A DNA stretch of 42,554 nucleotides from a virus (taxonomy: Duplodnaviria; Heunggongvirae; Uroviricota; Caudoviricetes), in the IMG/VR virus record IMGVR_UViG_2802429237_000001, positions 1-42,554 of that record; one strand, given 5' to 3'. The notes under the pieces were generated by a model. It did no database searches. It was given only the letters and a program-made list of their open reading frames with translations, and had not been told where the DNA came from. The translations under genes and the position numbers were made by a program. This document shows positions 9,357 through 26,128 of this stretch, piece by piece; within the stretch, counting starts at the first letter, position 1; each line of letters opens with the position of its first letter.

Positions 9357-9762
9357 GCACATCGAATCAGTGTTGTTAGCCCTAGCCGCTGAAAAAGGGC
9401 AGGCGTGGGTCGCTAACGCAATTACTGAAGAATATCTGCGCCAGGGGGGCGGCGAATTGCCCCTGGTACCAGGCAAGGACTGGAATAATCAGCAGAACAT
9501 CTATCACCGTTGGTTAAAAGGTGAAACGGAAGCGCAAAGGGAAAAAATTCAGAAACTGATCCCTGCAATTCTGGCAATCCTTCCGCGCGAGCTGCGTCAC
9601 CGACTCTGCATCTTCGATACCTTGGAACGCCGTGCATTACTGGCGGCGCAGGAAGCGTTGAGTACGGCAATTGATGCGCATGATGATGCAGTCCAGGCCG
9701 TTTACCAGAAAGCGCATTTCAGCGGCGGCGGGTCTTCCGACGATTCTGTCATTGTTCATTAA
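9340..9762 (+). CDS. ydaT: YdaT-like protein (toxic partner in the RacR-controlled module)
   Basis: 140 aa, the same length as Rac YdaT; follows the ydaS-like gene with 17-nt overlap; SD caggag. Confidence 0.65.
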   Translation: MKIRHEHIESVLLALAAEKGQAWVANAITEEYLRQGGGELPLVPGKDWNNQQNIYHRWLKGETEAQREKIQKLIPAILAILPRELRHRLCIFDTLERRALLAAQEALSTAIDAHDDAVQAVYQKAHFSGGGSSDDSVIVH

Positions 9763-9774
9763 GCAAAAGTTTCC

Positions 9775-10632
9775 ATGCTGTTTGTGCTTATTCTAAGCCA
9801 CCGGGCAGCATCATACGGGGCAATTATGGCCGCATTACCATACATGCAACTGTACATAGCTGATTACCTGGCTGACACCATGCATTTGTCAGCAGAGGAG
9901 CACGGTGCGTATTTGTTGCTGATGTTCAATTACTGGCAAACAGGAAAGCCAATACCCAAAAACAGGCTGGCAAAAATTGCCCGTCTGACTAACGAGCGAT
10001 GGGCTGATGTTGAACCATCCTTGCGGGAGTTTTTTTGCGATAACGGCGAGGAATGGGTGCATCTTCGGATTGAGGAAGATCTGGCATCAGTCAGGGAAAA
10101 ATTAACCAAAAAATCAGCCGCAGGAAAAGCATCTGTTCAGGCCAGAAGAAGCAGAAAGAAAGCAGATGTTCAAACAAAACAAGAGAGAAATTTAACAGGT
10201 GTTCAAACAGATGTTGAAGTGGTGTTTGAACATGATGTCAACACAAAGGCAACTAATAAAGATACAGATAAAGATCTAAAAACAGATCCCCCCCTAAATC
10301 CCCCCCGGGGGAATCGAGGTGTCAAAAAGTTTGACCCTCTGGATATTGCTTTGCCGAACTGGATTTCTGTCTCGCTTTGGCGTGAGTGGGTTGAATTTCG
10401 CCAGGCATTGCGTAAACCGATTCGAACGGAGCAGGGCGCTAACGGGGCGATACGGGAGCTGGAAAAATTCCGCCAGCAGGGTTTTTCACCTGAGCAGGTG
10501 ATTCGACACAGCATCGCCAATGAATACCAGGGCTTGTTCGCGCCGAAAGGTGTTCGGCCTGAGACGTTGCTCCGACAGGTTAACACCGTCTCGTTGCCGG
10601 ACAGTGCGATCCCGCCAGGCTTCAGGGGGTAA
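9775..10632 (+). CDS. ydaU: YdaU-like replication protein (DUF1376-like)
   Basis: 285 aa, matching Rac YdaU length; N-terminal segment YMQLYIADYLADTMHLSAEEHGAYLLL; alternative start at ATG 9826 has a better SD. Confidence 0.7.
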   Translation: MLFVLILSHRAASYGAIMAALPYMQLYIADYLADTMHLSAEEHGAYLLLMFNYWQTGKPIPKNRLAKIARLTNERWADVEPSLREFFCDNGEEWVHLRIEEDLASVREKLTKKSAAGKASVQARRSRKKADVQTKQERNLTGVQTDVEVVFEHDVNTKATNKDTDKDLKTDPPLNPPRGNRGVKKFDPLDIALPNWISVSLWREWVEFRQALRKPIRTEQGANGAIRELEKFRQQGFSPEQVIRHSIANEYQGLFAPKGVRPETLLRQVNTVSLPDSAIPPGFRG

Positions 10633-12184: not shown

Positions 12185-12646
12185 ATGGCAAAAGTATTTA
12201 CACAAGAAGAGCGGGAAAAAATTAAGGGGAAGGTTGTTGAGCTCGTGCGCCAGAGTGGGCGCGAGACGTTACGACAACTGGAAGCTAAGACAGGTGCGAC
12301 AAGATATCTGATGAGTGTTCTTGCCAGAGAGCTGGTTGCCAGTGGCGATTTATACAACTCCGGCTACGGGTTATTTCCGTCTGAACAGGCACGTAAGGAC
12401 TGGATAAAGGCCCGCAAAAAGATGTCGAAAGCAGCAGTGAAAAAAAAGAGCGACCCGGACCTGGTTTATTCATTACCAGACGGAGAAATACGCCGCTATG
12501 ACAGGCGTCTGAACATAATCTGTCGCGAGTGTCGGAGGAGCGAAGCTATGCAGCGCGTACTGGCGTTTTACCAGAATGGTTTTCGAGAGATATTCGGTGA
12601 ACAGGTTATGCATGAGGGAAATCATGGCACTCAGGTCAGTGTGTAG
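12185..12646 (+). CDS. Hypothetical basic protein
   Basis: 153 aa from ATG at 12185 with SD ggagg (track start 12170 is TTG); conserved-looking C-terminus with CRECRR motif. Confidence 0.5.
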   Translation: MAKVFTQEEREKIKGKVVELVRQSGRETLRQLEAKTGATRYLMSVLARELVASGDLYNSGYGLFPSEQARKDWIKARKKMSKAAVKKKSDPDLVYSLPDGEIRRYDRRLNIICRECRRSEAMQRVLAFYQNGFREIFGEQVMHEGNHGTQVSV

Positions 12647-12882
12647 GCACGTTGACGGTAGAAAGCATATGGGGGATCGATCGTTCTAGTTATGCTGTAA
12701 GAGCGAAAGCGCAGGCGCTGGGTATCAACAGGATGTTACGGGGTGACTTTCACTTGAGCTAGTGGGATCAATTTTACTGTTGGGGTGGGGGGACGTTAAG
12801 TTGCTGACAATTTCGAAATGTTTTTGATAAAGGCAGCGATTTTCTTTGATGGAGGGGCTACAAAAAATTTTTCATGTGAAAT

Positions 12883-14049
12883 ATGATATCTGCGATGTTA
12901 TCAAATGTGAAAATATTTATGAATCTGCAAAAAAGAAGAAAAGTTCAAAAACTAAACTATCGCGGGCAAGTTTCGAAACTGAAGAGGGGGATATTTAATT
13001 CTCTGAAAAGCACGGATTGGGAAGGAGTAGAAAATGCGAAGAGAAAACTGGAATATTACAAACGCACTCGTAAGCTACGAGTCTCGAAGAAAAAGTTGAC
13101 AACAAGTAATAAAAGGGTGGTTTTTTCTGCTCCGATATCTATTAATTATTACAACGATCGTGATTTTGAAATCATGAATAAATTTTTAAATAATTTACGC
13201 GATTGCGTGTTGAAGAATAATCGTGTTTATATAGATTTTTCTTCAACTAAATATATAAGTGCAGCTGCTATGTTATCTTTTCTCGCTGAAGTTGATGTGC
13301 TTATTAAGAAAAGTGAATTTGGAGTAAATGCCATAGGGTTTTCACATCCGAAAGACAAGAAAATTGAAAGCATTTTGAATCAAGTCGGTTTCTATGATCT
13401 ATTAAGGAAACCTAAAAGAGAAACTGAAAGTTATGATGATGTGACTTTTTGGAAATATACATCAGGTTCTTGTTCTGAGCCTCTTTTAGCAAAAGAAATG
13501 ATGGTGGAAATAAAAAAAGAGTTAGAAAGAAAATCATCAAAAAAATTATACCGTGGCTTTACTGAGGCCATGTCTAATTCTGTCGAGCATGCTTATGTTG
13601 ATGATTTAATGCATACGGAAGATGACGAAACAGCTAAGTGGTGGACCTTTGCTGGCATACATGACAAAAATCTTACAGTGGTAATATGTGATAAAGGAGT
13701 GGGAATACCTTCAACATTGCCTAAAACACAAGGTGTAAGTGTGCTAATGAACATCTTCAAAAAACTTAGAGTTCCATTAGCAAATGTAAAGGATTCTACT
13801 TATATAAAGGCTTCCACGTTACTTCAGGAAACGAGGACTGGGGAGCTGAACCGAGGTAAAGGCTTGAATGATATCAAATCGGTAATCGATTCAATAGGTG
13901 ATGGTTTTATGGGGATTTTTTCATCAAAAGGGCGCTATATTTACAAAGGGAAAACTGGCATTATTAACGAAGTGCTTAGAGATTACAAAAGCTCTGTTAA
14001 TGGTACTATAATTGAATGGACAATTCCTTGTGAGGTGGAAACTGAGTAG
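12883..14049 (+). CDS. GHKL-family ATPase/serine-kinase-like protein (RsbW-like C-terminal domain) with Lys/Arg-rich N-terminus
   Basis: 388 aa; Bergerat-fold motifs: N-box EAMSNSVEHAY, G1 box ICDKGVGIP, G2 box NRGKGLNDIKS; N-terminal 75 residues highly basic; AT-rich coding sequence. Confidence 0.7.
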   Translation: MISAMLSNVKIFMNLQKRRKVQKLNYRGQVSKLKRGIFNSLKSTDWEGVENAKRKLEYYKRTRKLRVSKKKLTTSNKRVVFSAPISINYYNDRDFEIMNKFLNNLRDCVLKNNRVYIDFSSTKYISAAAMLSFLAEVDVLIKKSEFGVNAIGFSHPKDKKIESILNQVGFYDLLRKPKRETESYDDVTFWKYTSGSCSEPLLAKEMMVEIKKELERKSSKKLYRGFTEAMSNSVEHAYVDDLMHTEDDETAKWWTFAGIHDKNLTVVICDKGVGIPSTLPKTQGVSVLMNIFKKLRVPLANVKDSTYIKASTLLQETRTGELNRGKGLNDIKSVIDSIGDGFMGIFSSKGRYIYKGKTGIINEVLRDYKSSVNGTIIEWTIPCEVETE

Positions 14050-14050
14050 T

Positions 14051-14365
14051 ATGAAAATTATAAAAGTAGCCAGTCGTTATCCTTGCCCAGGACCTCGTTT
14101 TAAAAGATTGGGGCCCGCTTCTGGTGAGGAGTTTCGTGAGTGGGTAGAAAGAGAGCTTAAACATTCACCAGATCTAACAATAGACCTTGATGGAACGGAG
14201 GGGTATGGTTCTTCTTTCTTGGAGGAGTGCTTTGGCGGATTGATTAGGCGTGGCGTGAGTCCTGATAAGGTTAAAGGGATTAAATTTATCTCAGAAGAAG
14301 AACCTGAGTTAATTGACGAGATAAATGAATATATCGAGGACGCTATAAAGGTATCTCATGGCTAA
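14051..14365 (+). CDS. STAS-like domain protein (DUF4325-type)
   Basis: 104 aa; starts 2 nt after the upstream stop with SD gaggtgg; core LTIDLDGTEGYGSSFLEECFGGLIRRG resembles DUF4325/STAS-like proteins as I recall them. Confidence 0.65.
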   Translation: MKIIKVASRYPCPGPRFKRLGPASGEEFREWVERELKHSPDLTIDLDGTEGYGSSFLEECFGGLIRRGVSPDKVKGIKFISEEEPELIDEINEYIEDAIKVSHG

Positions 14366-14876
14366 TTCAAGTATCCAGGTCTGTACTTGGAGTGCAGACT
14401 TTTGGTGTAAGTTTTTTTCTTTGTTTAAAGATGAAAATCAGTATGTAACTTGGTTTTTAGTTTTAGTTGGATGGGGGATTACGGCATATATTGCTTATCT
14501 CCAAACCACAAAAAGTAGAGGAGATGCTATTAAAGATGCTCATAATGAATGGATCGGTGAGTTTAGACAAAAACTGGAGTTGCTTGAGGATTTTGCCTTA
14601 GAGTTCTGGGCTGAAGATAATAATAAAGAACCTACACTGGCGTTAGCAAAAATGAGTAGGGAGGTTAAGAGTTTAACTACTATCGCTAAAGAAATTGAAA
14701 GGGCCGGTGGTGAAAAATATAAGGCAAAATTGTTTAAGGAATTACGCCAAGCCATGACATATGATAGTGATGTTCACAACCGACCTCTAAGACCTGATTG
14801 TATGCAAATTGTTAGGATTAGAGAAACATGTGCAAGTTTGAGAAGTGCGTACGGGCGCAAAAGCTTGACTGAATAA
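14358..14876 (+). CDS. Single-pass membrane protein with coiled-coil-like C-terminal domain
   Basis: 172 aa; start overlaps the upstream stop (ATGGCTAA); one hydrophobic helix YVTWFLVLVGWGITAYIAYL (about residues 30-50); SD aaagg. Confidence 0.6.
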   Translation: MANSSIQVCTWSADFWCKFFSLFKDENQYVTWFLVLVGWGITAYIAYLQTTKSRGDAIKDAHNEWIGEFRQKLELLEDFALEFWAEDNNKEPTLALAKMSREVKSLTTIAKEIERAGGEKYKAKLFKELRQAMTYDSDVHNRPLRPDCMQIVRIRETCASLRSAYGRKSLTE

Positions 14877-15273
14877 CCTCATATTGCTGAGTAGCTGGTA
14901 CTGCATATTATTATGAAAACACATCGTGGTTTTTATATAAAAGCTGCTTATTATTAAGAGATCTGTTTTATGTTTTTGGCTAGTAAAATGTGATTCTTAA
15001 CTTAAATGTTCCCTTACACTAGATTTATAATATCATCGTGTGATTTATAAACTATGCATTAGTAATAATTAATTTTTCGGAAAAATAGTTAAGTAAAATT
15101 GCTGCGTGTGCTTGAGGCTATCTGCCTCGGGCATGAACACCAACGGCAGATAGAGAAAAGCCCAGTTAACATTACGCGTCCCGCAAGACGTTTAATATTA
15201 ATCTTAGGCCAATTTCATGCTAGACACATGGATGTTAGCCTCTTACGTGCCGAAAGGCAAGGAGAAGCAGGCT

Positions 15274-15429
15274 ATGAAGCAGCAAAAGGCGATGTTAGTC
15301 GCCCTGATCGTCATCTGTTTAACCGTCATTGTGACGGCACTGGTAACGAGGAAAGACCTCTGCGAGGTACGAATCCGAACCGGCCAGACGGAGGTCGCTG
15401 TCTTCACAGCTTACGAACCTGAGGAGTAA
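15274..15429 (+). CDS. hok: Hok/Gef-family type I toxin
   Basis: 51 aa MKQQKAMLVALIVICLTVIVTALVTRKDLCEVRIRTGQTEVAVFTAYEPEE; matches the Hok/HokD (RelF) pattern; in-frame upstream extension from 15217 may correspond to a mok-like leader. Confidence 0.8.
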   Translation: MKQQKAMLVALIVICLTVIVTALVTRKDLCEVRIRTGQTEVAVFTAYEPEE

Positions 15430-17637: not shown

Positions 17638-18175
17638 TTCTTTCTCCAATAATAACTGGCAATGGAATGAGTACCTCCCAGAATGGTTGATACCCTGCGT
17701 AAATCTGAGTTGTTTCTCCCTTCCAGTAAAGATCCAGCCTCTGAGATATTTCTACTGGGGAGCAGTTCAGATTTAACAAATTCATATCGCCTCTATGATA
17801 GTTCGACGATGAGTTGACTTGAAATATTGGGGTATCAAGTGGAAACTTTGAAAAACCTCTGAACCAGGCTGCTTCTTTTACAGACTCACATGCAAAAATT
17901 GATTGGAAACGCGATGGTTTTTCAGGGAAATGTGATTTTCTTCGTTCTTCCAGCAGTATTTCTATTATTGCTCCAAATCGTTCATCTGAGCTGACGAGGT
18001 TTATGTGGTAGTTGAAAAAAAGATTATTTGCATGCCTGGATACGCCGTCGGAAAACAATGAGCTCGTATGAGCCTGAAGTGGAACGATTGGGCAGTGCGG
18101 TTCAGTCAACTCAATTTTCATGCCTGACGTCAGTGTACGCAGCCTGTCAAGTGTGAAAAAAAGATGGTTCGCCAT
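17627..18175 (-). CDS. Hypothetical cargo protein (182 aa), opposite strand between Q-like gene and lysis genes
   Basis: ATG at 18175 with SD aggaaag; lower GC than flanks; no domain recognised. Confidence 0.6.
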   Translation of the reverse strand: MANHLFFTLDRLRTLTSGMKIELTEPHCPIVPLQAHTSSLFSDGVSRHANNLFFNYHINLVSSDERFGAIIEILLEERRKSHFPEKPSRFQSIFACESVKEAAWFRGFSKFPLDTPIFQVNSSSNYHRGDMNLLNLNCSPVEISQRLDLYWKGETTQIYAGYQPFWEVLIPLPVIIGERIIE

Positions 18176-18209
18176 ATTAATGCTTTCCTGCTGATATTGG
18201 TTATTTCTG

Positions 18210-18237
18210 TTGATTTAACGATATCAGGATATATAAG
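18210..18237 (+). promoter_or_regulatory. Candidate late promoter (PR'-like): ttgatt-N16-tataag
   Basis: -35-like ttgatt at 18210..18215 and -10-like tataag at 18232..18237; about 230 bp upstream of the holin gene and upstream of a terminator hairpin. Confidence 0.3.
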
Positions 18238-18342
18238 TGTAGTGAATACAATGCTGTAAAAGCGGTAGAGCAGCCTCCGCATCTGGTAGCCTGACTGGAT
18301 GAAATAGTGCAGTGATATTCCTAATAGCCACGATTAATAGAC

Positions 18343-18371
18343 CTCGGCATTTGCCGGGGTTTTTTATTTAA
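18343..18371 (+). terminator. tR'-like intrinsic terminator upstream of the lysis cassette
   Basis: cucggca-uu-ugccggg (one G-U pair) followed by guuuuuuauuu. Confidence 0.5.
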
Positions 18372-18465
18372 GGCCGCAGACAGGCCCATTTAGTGCAACG
18401 CCTTTCCCCGTTTCCGCTCCTGGAATATTCGGGGATTTTTTATTCCCTCAATTTGCACCCGCGAT

Positions 18466-18825
18466 ATGTGCGAGGTGAGAGATGATGAAATGCCTCATAA
18501 CCCAAATACCTGGCCGGACTGGCTGGAGTTGTTTCAGAGCTGGTGGCGTGGAGACACTCCGCTGGGCGCAGTGATTATGTCGATCGTTATGGCTGGTTTG
18601 CGCATCGCCTATTTTGGCGGTGGTGGGGGCTGGAAACGAAAAACGCTTGAGATTTTGCTCTGTGGTGCCCTGACGCTGACCTTTGCATCCGCGCTTGAGT
18701 ATGTCGGATGGCCTAAATCACTTTCTGTTGCCATTGGTGGAGGGGTGGGGCTGATTGGTGTTGATGCTATTCGTGGTGCGGCAATGAGGGTCATCGGTAA
18801 CAAGTTCGGTGCCCATAAGGAGTAA
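18466..18825 (+). CDS. S: Holin, lambda S-like class I
   Basis: Hydrophobic helices GAVIMSIVMAGLRIAYFGG, ILLCGALTLTFASALEYVGW, SVAIGGGVGLIGV arranged like lambda S; probable start at ATG 18490 (SD gaggtgaga) with upstream in-frame ATG at 18466. Confidence 0.8.
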   Translation: MCEVRDDEMPHNPNTWPDWLELFQSWWRGDTPLGAVIMSIVMAGLRIAYFGGGGGWKRKTLEILLCGALTLTFASALEYVGWPKSLSVAIGGGVGLIGVDAIRGAAMRVIGNKFGAHKE

Positions 18826-18828
18826 TTA

Positions 18829-19305
18829 ATGCAGACACTTAATTCCCAGCGTAAAGCTTTCCTTGATATGGTGGCATGGTCAGAAGGAACAGATAACGGA
18901 CGGCAGAAAACCAGAAATCACGGTTATGATGTTATTGTCGGTGGCGAACTGTTCACTGATTACTCCGATCACCCCCGCAAACTTGTCACGCTAAATCCGA
19001 AACTCAAATCAACAGCCGCCGGACGTTACCAGCTTCTTTCCCGTTGGTGGGATGCCTATCGTAAGCAACTTGGCCTGAAAGACTTCTCGCCGAAAAGCCA
19101 GGACGCTGTGGCACTGCAGCAGATTAAAGAGCGTGGCGCTTTACCGATGATTGACCGTGGCGATATTCGTCAGGCAATCGACCGTTGCAGCAATATCTGG
19201 GCGTCGTTACCTGGTGCAGGTTACGGTCAGTATGAACATAGAATCGGTGACCTGATTTCCCGATTTAAAGAAGCTGGTGGGGTGGTAAATGAAGCTGAGA
19301 TATAA
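18829..19305 (+). CDS. R: Endolysin, lambda R-like lytic transglycosylase
   Basis: 158 aa; NSQRKAFLDMVAWSEGTDNGRQKTRNHGYDVIVGGELFTDYSDHPRKLVTLNPKLKSTAAGRYQLLSRWWDAYRKQLGLKDFSPKSQDAVALQQIKERGALPMIDRGDIRQAIDRCSNIWASLPGAGYGQ is nearly identical to lambda R as I recall it. Confidence 0.9.
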   Translation: MQTLNSQRKAFLDMVAWSEGTDNGRQKTRNHGYDVIVGGELFTDYSDHPRKLVTLNPKLKSTAAGRYQLLSRWWDAYRKQLGLKDFSPKSQDAVALQQIKERGALPMIDRGDIRQAIDRCSNIWASLPGAGYGQYEHRIGDLISRFKEAGGVVNEAEI

Positions 19306-24268: not shown

Positions 24269-24893
24269 CAGTATCACGGAAATTATTGAGGCGCTGGAAC
24301 GCTACAGTGAAATCATCACCCCCTGGGCGACAAAGGTCGCGGAAAACTTTACCGCCGACATTGTGCGCAAGAATGATGAGCAGTGGCGTAAACACAGCAA
24401 AACCATCAGCCGTGAGCTACGCAATCTGGTAAACAGTGCCCCTCCAGGGCAGGTGATGAAATCCATCGTTGCTGAACAGGTTAAGTACATCAAATCGCTA
24501 CCCCTCGAGGCGGCTGACAGGGTGTACGACATCCAGAATCGGGCGATAGAAGCTGTTGTTACCGGTGGGAGAGCGGAACATTTTGCTAAAGAAATAGCCG
24601 CATCGGGTGATATAGCAAAGTCCAGAGCTGACCTGATTGCCCGTACTGAACTTGGACGTGCAACCGGAGCGCTGGATCAGGCGCGTGCGCTGTCAATTGG
24701 TTCGAATGGTTATATCTGGCGTACAGCCGAAGATGGTGACGTCAGGCATTCTCATCAGGAAATGGAAGGTAAATTTGTCGAATGGGGCAAACCTCCAACG
24801 CTTGACGGCATGACAGGTCATGCTGGCGAGCTCCCGAATTGTCGCTGTTATAAAGAAATCGTTTTTCCCACCTCCCAATCTTATCCCGCCTGA
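24120..24893 (+). CDS. Head morphogenesis protein, Mu F-like
   Basis: 257 aa; C-terminal segment WRTAEDGDVRHSHQEMEGKFVEWGKPP...GELPNCRCY resembles the Mu F/SPP1 gp7 family; start uncertain (149-nt overlap with portal). Confidence 0.7.
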   Translation: MPKTKRRPASANLMTNRRNRQAEIRYRTSLRRIARAVGDIVNGRYDGSNDSITEIIEALERYSEIITPWATKVAENFTADIVRKNDEQWRKHSKTISRELRNLVNSAPPGQVMKSIVAEQVKYIKSLPLEAADRVYDIQNRAIEAVVTGGRAEHFAKEIAASGDIAKSRADLIARTELGRATGALDQARALSIGSNGYIWRTAEDGDVRHSHQEMEGKFVEWGKPPTLDGMTGHAGELPNCRCYKEIVFPTSQSYPA

Positions 24894-24907
24894 ATCGCAG
24901 GTAACCC

Positions 24908-26128
24908 ATGAAATATTTTTTCAATACCCGGCTGGGAGAAACCCGCTACCAGCTGGCTGACGGCTCGTTGCTGTGCAAAGACGTGCCGATAGGACGAACA
25001 GGTAAGCAGCTCTATGGTGCTGATGACCTGCCAAAACTGAAACCCGATAAGTTCGGTGAAATAGTCGTCACACGTTCTCCTGAGCAGGTATTCCATCCGG
25101 CCACGCTTGCCTCATTCGAAGGGATGAGCATCACGATCCTGCATCCTGAAGATGAAAACGGGAATGTGCGGCTAGTAAATCCCGAGAACTGGAAAGAGCT
25201 TGCTGTCGGGCATCTTCAGAATGTCCGGCGCGGGACGGGTGAGCAGTCTGATTTGATGCTGGCTGACCTTATCGTCAAAGACGAAAACGCCATTCAGCTT
25301 ATCGAAGATGGCCTGCGTGAAGTGTCGTGCGGCTATGACGCGGAGTACGAGCAGACCGAGCTAGGTAAAGCCGAGCAGGTCGATATTACCGGAAACCATG
25401 TGGCTCTTGTCCCCAAAGGCAGAGCCGGAAATCGTTGTGCAATTGGAGACAGAGACACAATGGCAAATCAAAAGAAAAACTGGTGGAACCGCATGCGTGC
25501 AGCCATCAAGACAGGAGATGCCGACACCATGAACGAACTGGTGGAGTCGGCTCCCGCATCGGTTACAGGAGATGAGGGGGATTTGCCGCAGGGCGTTAAT
25601 CTCAACATCAACCTGTCCCCGCAGCAACCACTACCGGACAAAGCACCAGAGATGGGTGGAGGTCCAACCGGCGACAGTGATGATGACCTCAAAACATTAC
25701 TGAAAGCCCTGCTGGCTAAGCTGGAAGGAAATGCCACGGGCGATAACGATAATAAGCCTGACGATAATCCGACCGGTGACGGCGAGGACGATGAAGAGGA
25801 AACCACGATTACTGGTGACTCAGCCTGGCGTGCCGAAGTTATCGTTCCGGGTATCGATCTGAGCCGTAAGATGAAACCGACCGAGTTCAAACGCGAGGTT
25901 CTGGCTTCCGCAGATAAAATGCTGGTTCGCCAGATCGTCGGTGATGCGGATATCCGCAAATTGCCGAAACAATCGGTCGACATGGCGTTTAATGCCGTGT
26001 CTGAGATTGCCAAAGGGCGCAACACCCGCGCCACCACCGGCGATGCACAGCGCCTAAACATGGGCATGACCAGTATCGCTTCCCTGAACAAACAAAACGC
26101 TGAATTCTGGGCAAACCGTAAAGGGTAA
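24908..26128 (+). CDS. Putative head scaffold/prohead protease-like protein
   Basis: 406 aa; acidic Gly/Asp-rich central linker; located between the Mu F-like gene and capsid genes. Confidence 0.55.
   Translation: MKYFFNTRLGETRYQLADGSLLCKDVPIGRTGKQLYGADDLPKLKPDKFGEIVVTRSPEQVFHPATLASFEGMSITILHPEDENGNVRLVNPENWKELAVGHLQNVRRGTGEQSDLMLADLIVKDENAIQLIEDGLREVSCGYDAEYEQTELGKAEQVDITGNHVALVPKGRAGNRCAIGDRDTMANQKKNWWNRMRAAIKTGDADTMNELVESAPASVTGDEGDLPQGVNLNINLSPQQPLPDKAPEMGGGPTGDSDDDLKTLLKALLAKLEGNATGDNDNKPDDNPTGDGEDDEEETTITGDSAWRAEVIVPGIDLSRKMKPTEFKREVLASADKMLVRQIVGDADIRKLPKQSVDMAFNAVSEIAKGRNTRATTGDAQRLNMGMTSIASLNKQNAEFWANRKG

Follow-up and report, generated by a model that had tools for sequence, protein, structure and literature searches.

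The question raised by this locus is whether three coupled genes lodged between the replication module of an Escherichia coli prophage and a toxin-antitoxin locus form a defence system and, if so, of which kind. The window, by which we mean the whole stretch of 42,554 nucleotides analysed here (IMG/VR record IMGVR_UViG_2802429237_000001), is identical in sequence to positions 1683399-1725952 of the E. coli UMNF18 chromosome and covers a prophage at the Rac site, which adjoins ttcA and carries intR, xisR, ralR, recT/recE, kilR, ydaT, and ydaV. Between the DUF977 gene of its replication module, ending at 12646, and hokD/sok, there are three open reading frames (ORFs) on the + strand, as are all features of the cassette described below. 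Gene 1 (g1, 12919..14049, 376 amino acids (aa), WP_223718946.1) is a sensor or kinase candidate, gene 2 (g2, 14051..14365, 104 aa, WP_000691548.1) encodes a STAS-like DUF4325 protein proposed to be kinase substrate and antitoxin, and gene 3 (g3, 14358..14876, 172 aa, WP_000013905.1) encodes a single-pass inner-membrane protein with a predicted cytoplasmic four-helix bundle, the proposed effector. We would give an even chance to the reading that this trio is a phosphorylation-gated module of abortive infection or superinfection exclusion that resembles VapKSC, with a membrane effector taking the place of the PIN toxin.

The three genes form one unit, and their recurrence goes far beyond chance. 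The order g1-g2-g3 is the same in every neighbourhood of distant g1 homologues examined, namely in Klebsiella/Raoultella, Vibrio fluvialis, Paraburkholderia, and two metagenomic lineages (one of them at 26% identity), with reading frames that usually overlap. A scan of viral contigs yielded 55 loci, 52 of which extend far enough to be assessed, and in all 52 the next two genes after g1 are a DUF4325 gene and an ORF of 149-179 aa, in that order, at kinase identities down to 22%. This third ORF has a hydrophobic segment (mean hydropathy of at least 1.5 within the first 60 residues) in 47 of the assessable loci and matches the hidden Markov model (HMM) of g3 in 41, and a PIN gene follows in none of these loci. 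For the subfamilies farthest away, hhalign of their third genes with the g3 family gave no significant match (E 0.012 and 0.054), and what we claim for them is a shared architecture of the third gene, not homology. The suspicion that this might not be a real gene set was rejected, since the trio is conserved across genera. In two loci the kinase gene appears to be lost: g1 is replaced by an insertion sequence/transposase insertion in L070 (3882-6003) and frameshifted, possibly through a sequencing error, in L029 (4965-6959), with g2 and g3 intact in both. Such loss of the kinase with g2 and g3 kept, together with the presence of g2 in every assessable viral locus, fits the logic of a toxin-antitoxin pair. 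Vibrio fluvialis (L006, 6001-9455) carries two trios in tandem, one of the long form and the other made up of a bare 187-aa GHKL kinase devoid of the basic and STAS modules, a DUF4325 protein of its own, and a single-pass membrane protein of 147 aa, and we therefore take these three components to be the core of the system.

As a piece of DNA, the cassette is largely what the initial annotation had described. Three coupled ORFs were confirmed (12883..14049 in the ORF form of g1, 14051..14365, and 14358..14876), and so was the 8-nt overlap ATGGCTAA at the g2/g3 junction, whereas the g1 stop and the g2 start (TAG-T-ATG) are 1 nt apart and not 2. The block is AT-rich, with a GC content of 0.33-0.40 over 13001-15000 compared to about 0.50 in both flanks, as had been noticed. 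While 989 complete E. coli genomes possess the DUF1627-DUF977 module, only 24 out of 5426 carry the trio, each time at 99% identity or higher; its carriers are prophages of porcine enterotoxigenic E. coli (ETEC) and of other animal-associated E. coli. The slot between DUF977 and DUF1367 is one for variable cargo and defence genes: in E. coli ES1 (L074, NZ_CP133856.1, 5903-9296) the same interval, from DUF977 to the ninB-like DUF1367, holds iteA/iteS (IetAS), and in EDL933 and SC418 it is filled by methyltransferases and small ORFs. Low GC, rarity among complete genomes, and the variable slot all bear out the earlier view of horizontally acquired cargo.

Across hosts that span from Gammaproteobacteria to Paraburkholderia, every copy of the trio sits on a mobile element, repeatedly in places that hold defence genes; a survey of the trio's neighbourhoods for defence context found it in cI/rexAB, P2 tin/old, P4-like satellite, and IetAS slots. 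In Marinobacter phage AS1 (genes AS1_41, 40, and 39), as well as in Pseudomonadales prophages and 7 other viral contigs, a cI-type repressor (a helix-turn-helix (HTH) plus Peptidase_S24, or Phage_CI_repr) stands directly upstream of the trio and is read in the same direction, which gives the trio the position of rexAB in lambda. In P2-like phages the trio occurs between replication gene A (gpA) and the portal/terminase genes, the tin/old locus of P2. In Klebsiella it resides in a P4-like satellite with a Pox_D5-type primase, in one variant beside putAbiC, and there are non-phage carriers too, a Vibrio AlpA/YfjJ island and a mobilisable element with a relaxase. SieB-type exclusion genes were found in sister prophages. 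Beyond g3 the genes differ in every context, and g3 is always the next gene after g2.

A framework for what such a trio might do has become available only recently. VapKSC consists of the kinase VapK, the STAS antitoxin VapS, and the PIN toxin VapC (Chambers et al., EMBO J 2026, PMC13373217). VapS inhibits VapC by binding via its STAS domain and C-terminal helix, a phosphomimetic VapS frees the toxin, and against phage Bas42 the operon protects by about 2 logs (PMC13373217). In CapK-CapS, a DNA-damage-activated kinase and a repressor with STAS and winged HTH (wHTH) domains are located upstream of CBASS, Bub, and Thoeris operons, and CapK activated by single-stranded DNA (ssDNA) phosphorylates the STAS serine of CapS; activation by ssDNA proceeds via a conserved aromatic residue, F54 in VapK and W68 in CapK (PMC13373217). 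These two are the only characterised systems with such a kinase-STAS pair, and with their sources in Enterobacter and Escherichia (PMC13373217) they have made outdated the statement that enterobacteria do not normally use partner switching of this type. The kinase/antagonist pairing that had been suggested for g1 and g2 is plausible.

How new the trio is can be judged from database and literature searches. PADLOC-DB v2.0 gave only chance-level matches of the trio proteins (E 0.026-0.033), NCBIfam contained nothing significant, and PHROGs contained only families of unknown function. A transmembrane partner and DUF4325 are both unmentioned in the text and supplements of the VapKSC study (PMC13373217), and in literature on DUF4325, the trio accessions, STAS with defence, and VapKSC, a coverage that leaves out most subscription journals, no membrane variant is described and none of the papers cites the three proteins. 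In the gene table of Francisella prophage KIRK, the genes beside a repressor and an integrase encode a hypothetical protein of 293 aa, a DUF4325 protein, and a transmembrane protein (PMC7924643), which is probably another variant of the trio. The claim of an undescribed system holds with regard to PADLOC families, but its novelty is narrower than supposed, the kinase-STAS pair being precedented (PMC13373217).

Translation of g1 most likely starts at 12919 rather than at the upstream ATG at 12883, from which the initial annotation had counted 388 aa, because RefSeq places the start there, all 38 aligned homologues (38/38) begin at a Met equivalent to 12919, and the ATG at 12883 is not kept in a relative with 82% identity (L020); residue numbers refer to the 376-aa form. 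An AlphaFold2 model built from the homologue alignment, with a predicted local distance difference test (pLDDT) of 82 and a predicted template modelling score (pTM) of 0.82, has three modules. Residues 1-60 (12919..13098) are modelled as a Lys/Arg-rich helical hairpin (helices 3-31, 34-48, and 51-57, pLDDT 82-90), and the net charge of +19 in the first 70 residues, ranging from +10 to +23 across the family, agrees with the Lys/Arg-rich N-terminus noted earlier. This basic module, missing from the short-kinase variant, could be a candidate binder of nucleic acid or membrane. It is followed by a STAS-like alpha/beta domain (residues 67-161, IDFSSTKYISAAAMLSFLAEV; 13117..13401) and by a GHKL (Bergerat) ATP-binding/kinase domain (residues 177-370; 13447..14028). 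Both the internal STAS-like domain and the helical nature of the N-terminal module had been missed before.

The GHKL motifs quoted in the initial annotation are real and survive alignment. Among 39 g1 sequences (homologues at 24-82% identity), E216, N220, and H224 of the N box (13555-13596), D258, G260, and G262 of the G1 box (13687-13710), R312, G313, and G315 of the G2 box (13852-13866), and a C-terminal motif S359..G362-T363..E366-W367 are all invariant. Pfam HATPase matches are sub-threshold by sequence (E 0.006) and are confirmed by the fold, for which the closest solved structures are the serine kinases SpoIIAB and RsbW; a sequence search of g1 against the PDB was marginal (RsbW N box, E 0.37) and served for register only. 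With CapK, VapK, and VapS sequences taken from the supplement of PMC13373217, profile comparison by hhalign matched g1 to CapK over 201 columns across the STAS and GHKL domains (P 95%, E 4e-8) and to VapK (P 92%, E 6.5e-7). Predicted fold and motifs together support the assignment of g1 as an RsbW/SpoIIAB-type GHKL serine kinase, much as first proposed.

The identification of g2 as a STAS-like DUF4325 protein was right, since it matches the Pfam family at E 5.6e-12 (45.6 bits, gathering cut-off 23). DUF4325 is its sole domain, with no wHTH or other DNA-binding domain, and the protein is acidic (pI, the isoelectric point, 5.0) and ends in an acidic C-terminal helix. The characterised antitoxin VapS also belongs to DUF4325 (E 2.7e-17), whereas Pfam did not detect this family in CapS, which matches HTH_24. 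When the g2 profile was compared with the PDB, the best two matches were the STAS anti-sigma antagonist 3t6o and VapS (9Z7O), both with marginal E-values of 0.7-0.8 that were used only for register, and both set the G-S54-S55-F stretch of g2 on the acceptor position. Ser54 and Ser55 of this GSSF motif (codons 14210..14215) are the predicted phospho-acceptor position. GSSF is found in 118 out of 120 g2 homologues and GTSF in the other 2, so that in the homologue alignment S55 is invariant and S54 is Ser or Thr; S54 is aligned with S48 of VapS and S55 with S54 of CapS (our own CapS numbering).

The third protein, g3, contains a single hydrophobic transmembrane segment at residues 30-48 (VTWFLVLVGWGITAYIAYL; 14445..14501; mean Kyte-Doolittle 1.73), in which T31, W32, G38, and W39 are conserved. 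It is thus a single-pass membrane protein as described before, and in place of the coiled-coil tail that had been assumed its C-terminal part is predicted to be a four-helix bundle. Lys and Arg are richer on the C-terminal flank of the transmembrane segment in 7/7 relatives compared, which by the positive-inside rule indicates an N-out/C-in topology and would put the helical domain in the cytoplasm with g2. No Pfam, NCBIfam, or PADLOC family matches g3, and its only PHROG match is weak (E 8.9e-5) and to a family of unknown function. When 1.84 billion representative proteins were searched exhaustively with HMMER, just 50 clusters (at 50% identity) of the g3 family were recovered, with members that are 124-210 aa long and in 0/50 clusters are fused to another domain. 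Thr134 (14757-14759), L161, and Y165 are invariant even in relatives with 16-19% identity; Thr134 may have a structural role or be phosphorylated as a second site.

Domain identities, invariant catalytic and acceptor residues, gene order, and placement in defence slots are all observed, and they can be fitted into the following scheme. At rest, g2 would be bound to the cytoplasmic four-helix domain of g3 and hold it inactive. The sensor would be g1, whose STAS-like and GHKL domains, perhaps together with the basic N-terminal helices, would respond to a sign of infection; if CapK and VapK are a guide, this cue is most likely ssDNA or another nucleic-acid product, although the identity of the trigger is uncertain. 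Once activated, g1 would phosphorylate g2 at Ser54 or Ser55, phosphorylated g2 would let go of g3, and freed g3 would self-associate in the inner membrane and dissipate membrane integrity or potential, so that the infected cell or the incoming phage would be stopped. By analogy with the characterised kinase-STAS systems we infer how the proteins interact, what triggers them, that g3 is toxic, and that phages are opposed. A role in abortive infection or superinfection exclusion, already proposed in the initial annotation, is well supported by genomic context, while as a function it is one that we infer.

Several observations weigh against this scheme. The direct profile similarity between g2 and VapS is weak (E 0.038 to 0.8), and among the three proteins it is g2 that is best conserved, not the usual pattern for an antitoxin. 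At residue 112 of g1, the motif-equivalent of VapK F54, the commonest residue is Lys and not an aromatic one; nearly invariant aromatics are found elsewhere in g1 (Y78, F107, and W178). The trio of the window stands in the early-right direction of transcription, and a scan for consensus promoters and terminators was at chance, with 8 promoter-like sites against 8.5 expected; with this direction and no promoter demonstrated, expression of the trio in the lysogen is unproven. Lastly, among the DefensePredictor candidates there is a 1.87-kb set named VPUS from an E. coli draft assembly, composed of a hypothetical, a STAS-like, and a hypothetical protein (PMC13092281 Table S6), which was cloned and scored non-defensive (PMC13092281) and which may be a variant of the same system. 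The trio accessions are absent from the tables of that study, the VPUS accessions (WP_000060412.1, WP_001244589.1, and WP_000154254.1) are not among the trio-family cluster members listed, and a distant DNA search of complete E. coli genomes found no second trio type.

A different way to read the same proteins is true partner switching with g1 as the output, in which g1 would act as an inhibitor by binding some protein of the host or phage (e.g., a sigma factor), unphosphorylated g2 would relieve this inhibition, and g3 would be an anchor or envelope sensor, so that transcription or physiology would be reprogrammed rather than the membrane damaged. The GHKL fold of g1 is closest to anti-sigma factors, NCBIfam gives weak, non-significant RsbW and SpoIIAB matches for it, and for g3 no likeness is clearly better than that to the four-helix sensor domains of histidine kinases and chemoreceptors. 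We nevertheless regard this as unlikely, for neither a PP2C phosphatase nor a sigma factor was seen in the neighbourhood listings or among the top 25 Pfam families of 149 flanking ORFs at 23 loci, the module moves among unrelated elements and hosts, which argues against a host-specific protein target, and the extra STAS and basic domains of g1 are like those of the sensor kinases CapK and VapK. A classical Rsb/SpoIIA module was rejected on the same ground, as no sigma factor or phosphatase was seen, and reprogramming of host transcription, which the initial annotation had also considered, finds no support: the locus lacks a sigma factor, g2 has no DNA-binding domain, and no PP2C is encoded nearby. 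The absence of PP2C and sigma factor from these surroundings fits a one-shot switch better than reversible partner switching.

It is likewise unlikely that the trio is a non-lethal exclusion or lifecycle module, in which g3 would block DNA entry by superinfecting phages in the manner of Sie, or tune lysis or induction of its own phage, and the kinase-STAS pair would only regulate. That the trio lies in the cI immunity operon of many phages, that sister prophages have SieB-type exclusion genes, and that g3 is a small single-pass membrane protein are all in keeping with such a role, but the non-phage islands and mobilisable elements (Vibrio AlpA/YfjJ, the relaxase element) are not, and occupation of three unrelated phage positions means that the trio is not wired into the lifecycle of any one phage. 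An elaborate ATP-dependent sensor, moreover, suggests a response that is triggered and not constitutive.

Quite unlikely, in our judgement, is a trio that has no anti-phage role of its own and either stabilises mobile elements as an addiction-type toxin-antitoxin cassette or answers DNA damage as a general stress module. The VapKSC authors themselves see no sharp border between stress response and immunity (PMC13373217), and a cassette that is always on mobile elements, that in the window adjoins hokD/sok, another addiction-type locus, and whose related-looking counterpart VPUS was scored non-defensive would suit such a purpose. Simple addiction, however, needs no kinase sensor, and it would not account for slots of validated defence systems, i.e., the IetAS slot, the P2 tin/old locus, the rexAB position, and the P4-like satellite beside AbiC. 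Finally, a CapK/CapS-type transcriptional controller of neighbouring genes is highly improbable in spite of the homology of g1 to CapK over both domains, and was rejected because g2, at 104 aa, has no wHTH or other DNA-binding domain, and g3 always comes after g2 whereas the genes beyond it vary by context.

Outside the coding part, the cassette is bounded by two spacers. The non-coding interval between the DUF977 gene and g1 (12647..12918) is 272 bp long, compared to 6-26 nt between the flanking replication-module genes, and may contain a candidate promoter belonging to the cassette. Upstream DNA is not conserved between contexts; only its last ~60 nt resemble L020, and within this stretch there is a TAT(G/T)AT hexamer ~33 nt before the ATG at 12919. 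In the stretch 12878-12886, the ATG at 12883 belongs to a TATGAT hexamer whose equivalent in L020 is TATTAT, and this hexamer may be a candidate -10 element rather than the site of a start codon. On the other side, the low-GC block ends with an AT-rich spacer recognised by composition (14877..15105). Next comes a type I toxin-antitoxin locus, hokD/sok, the trio's direct downstream neighbour, which occupies 15106-15429 of the window, with sok at 15106-15279 (Rfam RF01794, 96 bits) and the hokD coding sequence at 15274-15429 by annotation.

Three other parts of the prophage deserve mention. Just upstream of the holin/lysis cassette, 17756-18974 contains a gene for a scabin-related ADP-ribosyltransferase and one for a subtilase-family AB5 toxin B-subunit, in the position of the Shiga toxin genes in Stx phages, and with this pair the prophage may carry a toxin of AB5 type in an isolate from porcine diarrhoea. 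After ydaT, 9419-10632 comprises an unannotated gap of ~900 bp and a ydaU-like pseudogene that has no N-terminus (10318-10632); the replication region looks damaged, and the prophage may have lost the ability to replicate. Where the portal would be expected, next to the large terminase on its downstream side, 24608-26044 is annotated as "anti-CBASS protein Acb1 family protein," a label that may reflect a fusion or annotation carry-over.

Taken more broadly, we put a little short of an even chance on the trio representing a distinct and widespread defence family of mobile elements, in which a single-pass membrane effector of a type not known before would be controlled by an anti-sigma-type serine kinase together with a STAS protein. 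If true, this would be the first partner-switching chemistry to trigger abortive infection at the level of the membrane, and kinase-STAS sensing, described only in 2026, would extend from transcription control and nuclease release to a membrane effector. The CapK/VapK sensor module would then be a general, swappable trigger for a repressor, a nuclease, or a membrane protein, in support of the view of bacterial immunity as interchangeable sensor and effector parts. It would also add a new, very small membrane effector family and give Pfam DUF4325 proteins a function beyond VapKSC. The cassette fills four independent, well-known prophage or satellite defence slots, its presence in an isolated phage (Marinobacter AS1) makes it easy to test, and it could affect phage therapy and prophage competition in porcine ETEC and animal-associated strains.

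Among known systems, the likeness is one of position in two cases. In E. coli ES1, whose Rac-type prophage is syntenic, IetAS fills exactly the same DUF977-DUF1367 slot, but its proteins, an ATPase and an S8 protease, are unrelated to those of the trio. RexA-RexB of phage lambda pairs a cytoplasmic sensor with an inner-membrane protein presumed to depolarise the cell. The trio, directly downstream of cI in many phages, would likewise combine a cytoplasmic sensor with an inner-membrane protein, these roles being proposed ones, and the likeness is functional and positional only, as there is no kinship in sequence or fold, RexB has four transmembrane helices, and Rex has neither kinase nor STAS. 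With SpoIIAB-SpoIIAA and RsbW-RsbV, the trio shares the GHKL fold of anti-sigma serine kinases, the ATP-binding motifs being intact in g1, but it has no sigma factor or PP2C in the scanned neighbourhoods, its kinase has extra domains, a membrane protein is added, and it is cargo of mobile elements and not part of a core regulon. CapK is the best profile match of g1 and likewise a serine kinase acting on a STAS substrate; it begins, however, with an HTH where g1 has a basic helical hairpin with no HTH match, CapS is not detected as DUF4325 and represses transcription through a wHTH whereas g2 has no DNA-binding domain, and no regulated immune operon follows the trio. VapKSC comes nearest. It differs in that the third gene of the trio encodes a single-pass membrane protein with a four-helix bundle and not a PIN nuclease, in the extra basic helical N-terminus of ~65 aa in g1, and in the marginal direct similarity of g2 to VapS and the non-conservation, at the motif-equivalent position of g1, of the VapK ssDNA aromatic. 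Both are three-gene operons that run from a kinase through a STAS protein to a third gene, both kinases have a STAS followed by a GHKL domain (hhalign E 6.5e-7), both middle proteins are DUF4325 proteins of ~105-116 aa with a conserved Ser/Thr at the same position and a short C-terminal helix, and both lie on or near mobile and defence loci. The trio, which does not have the PIN toxin that defines VapKSC and is thus not a member of it, would nonetheless work in the same way.

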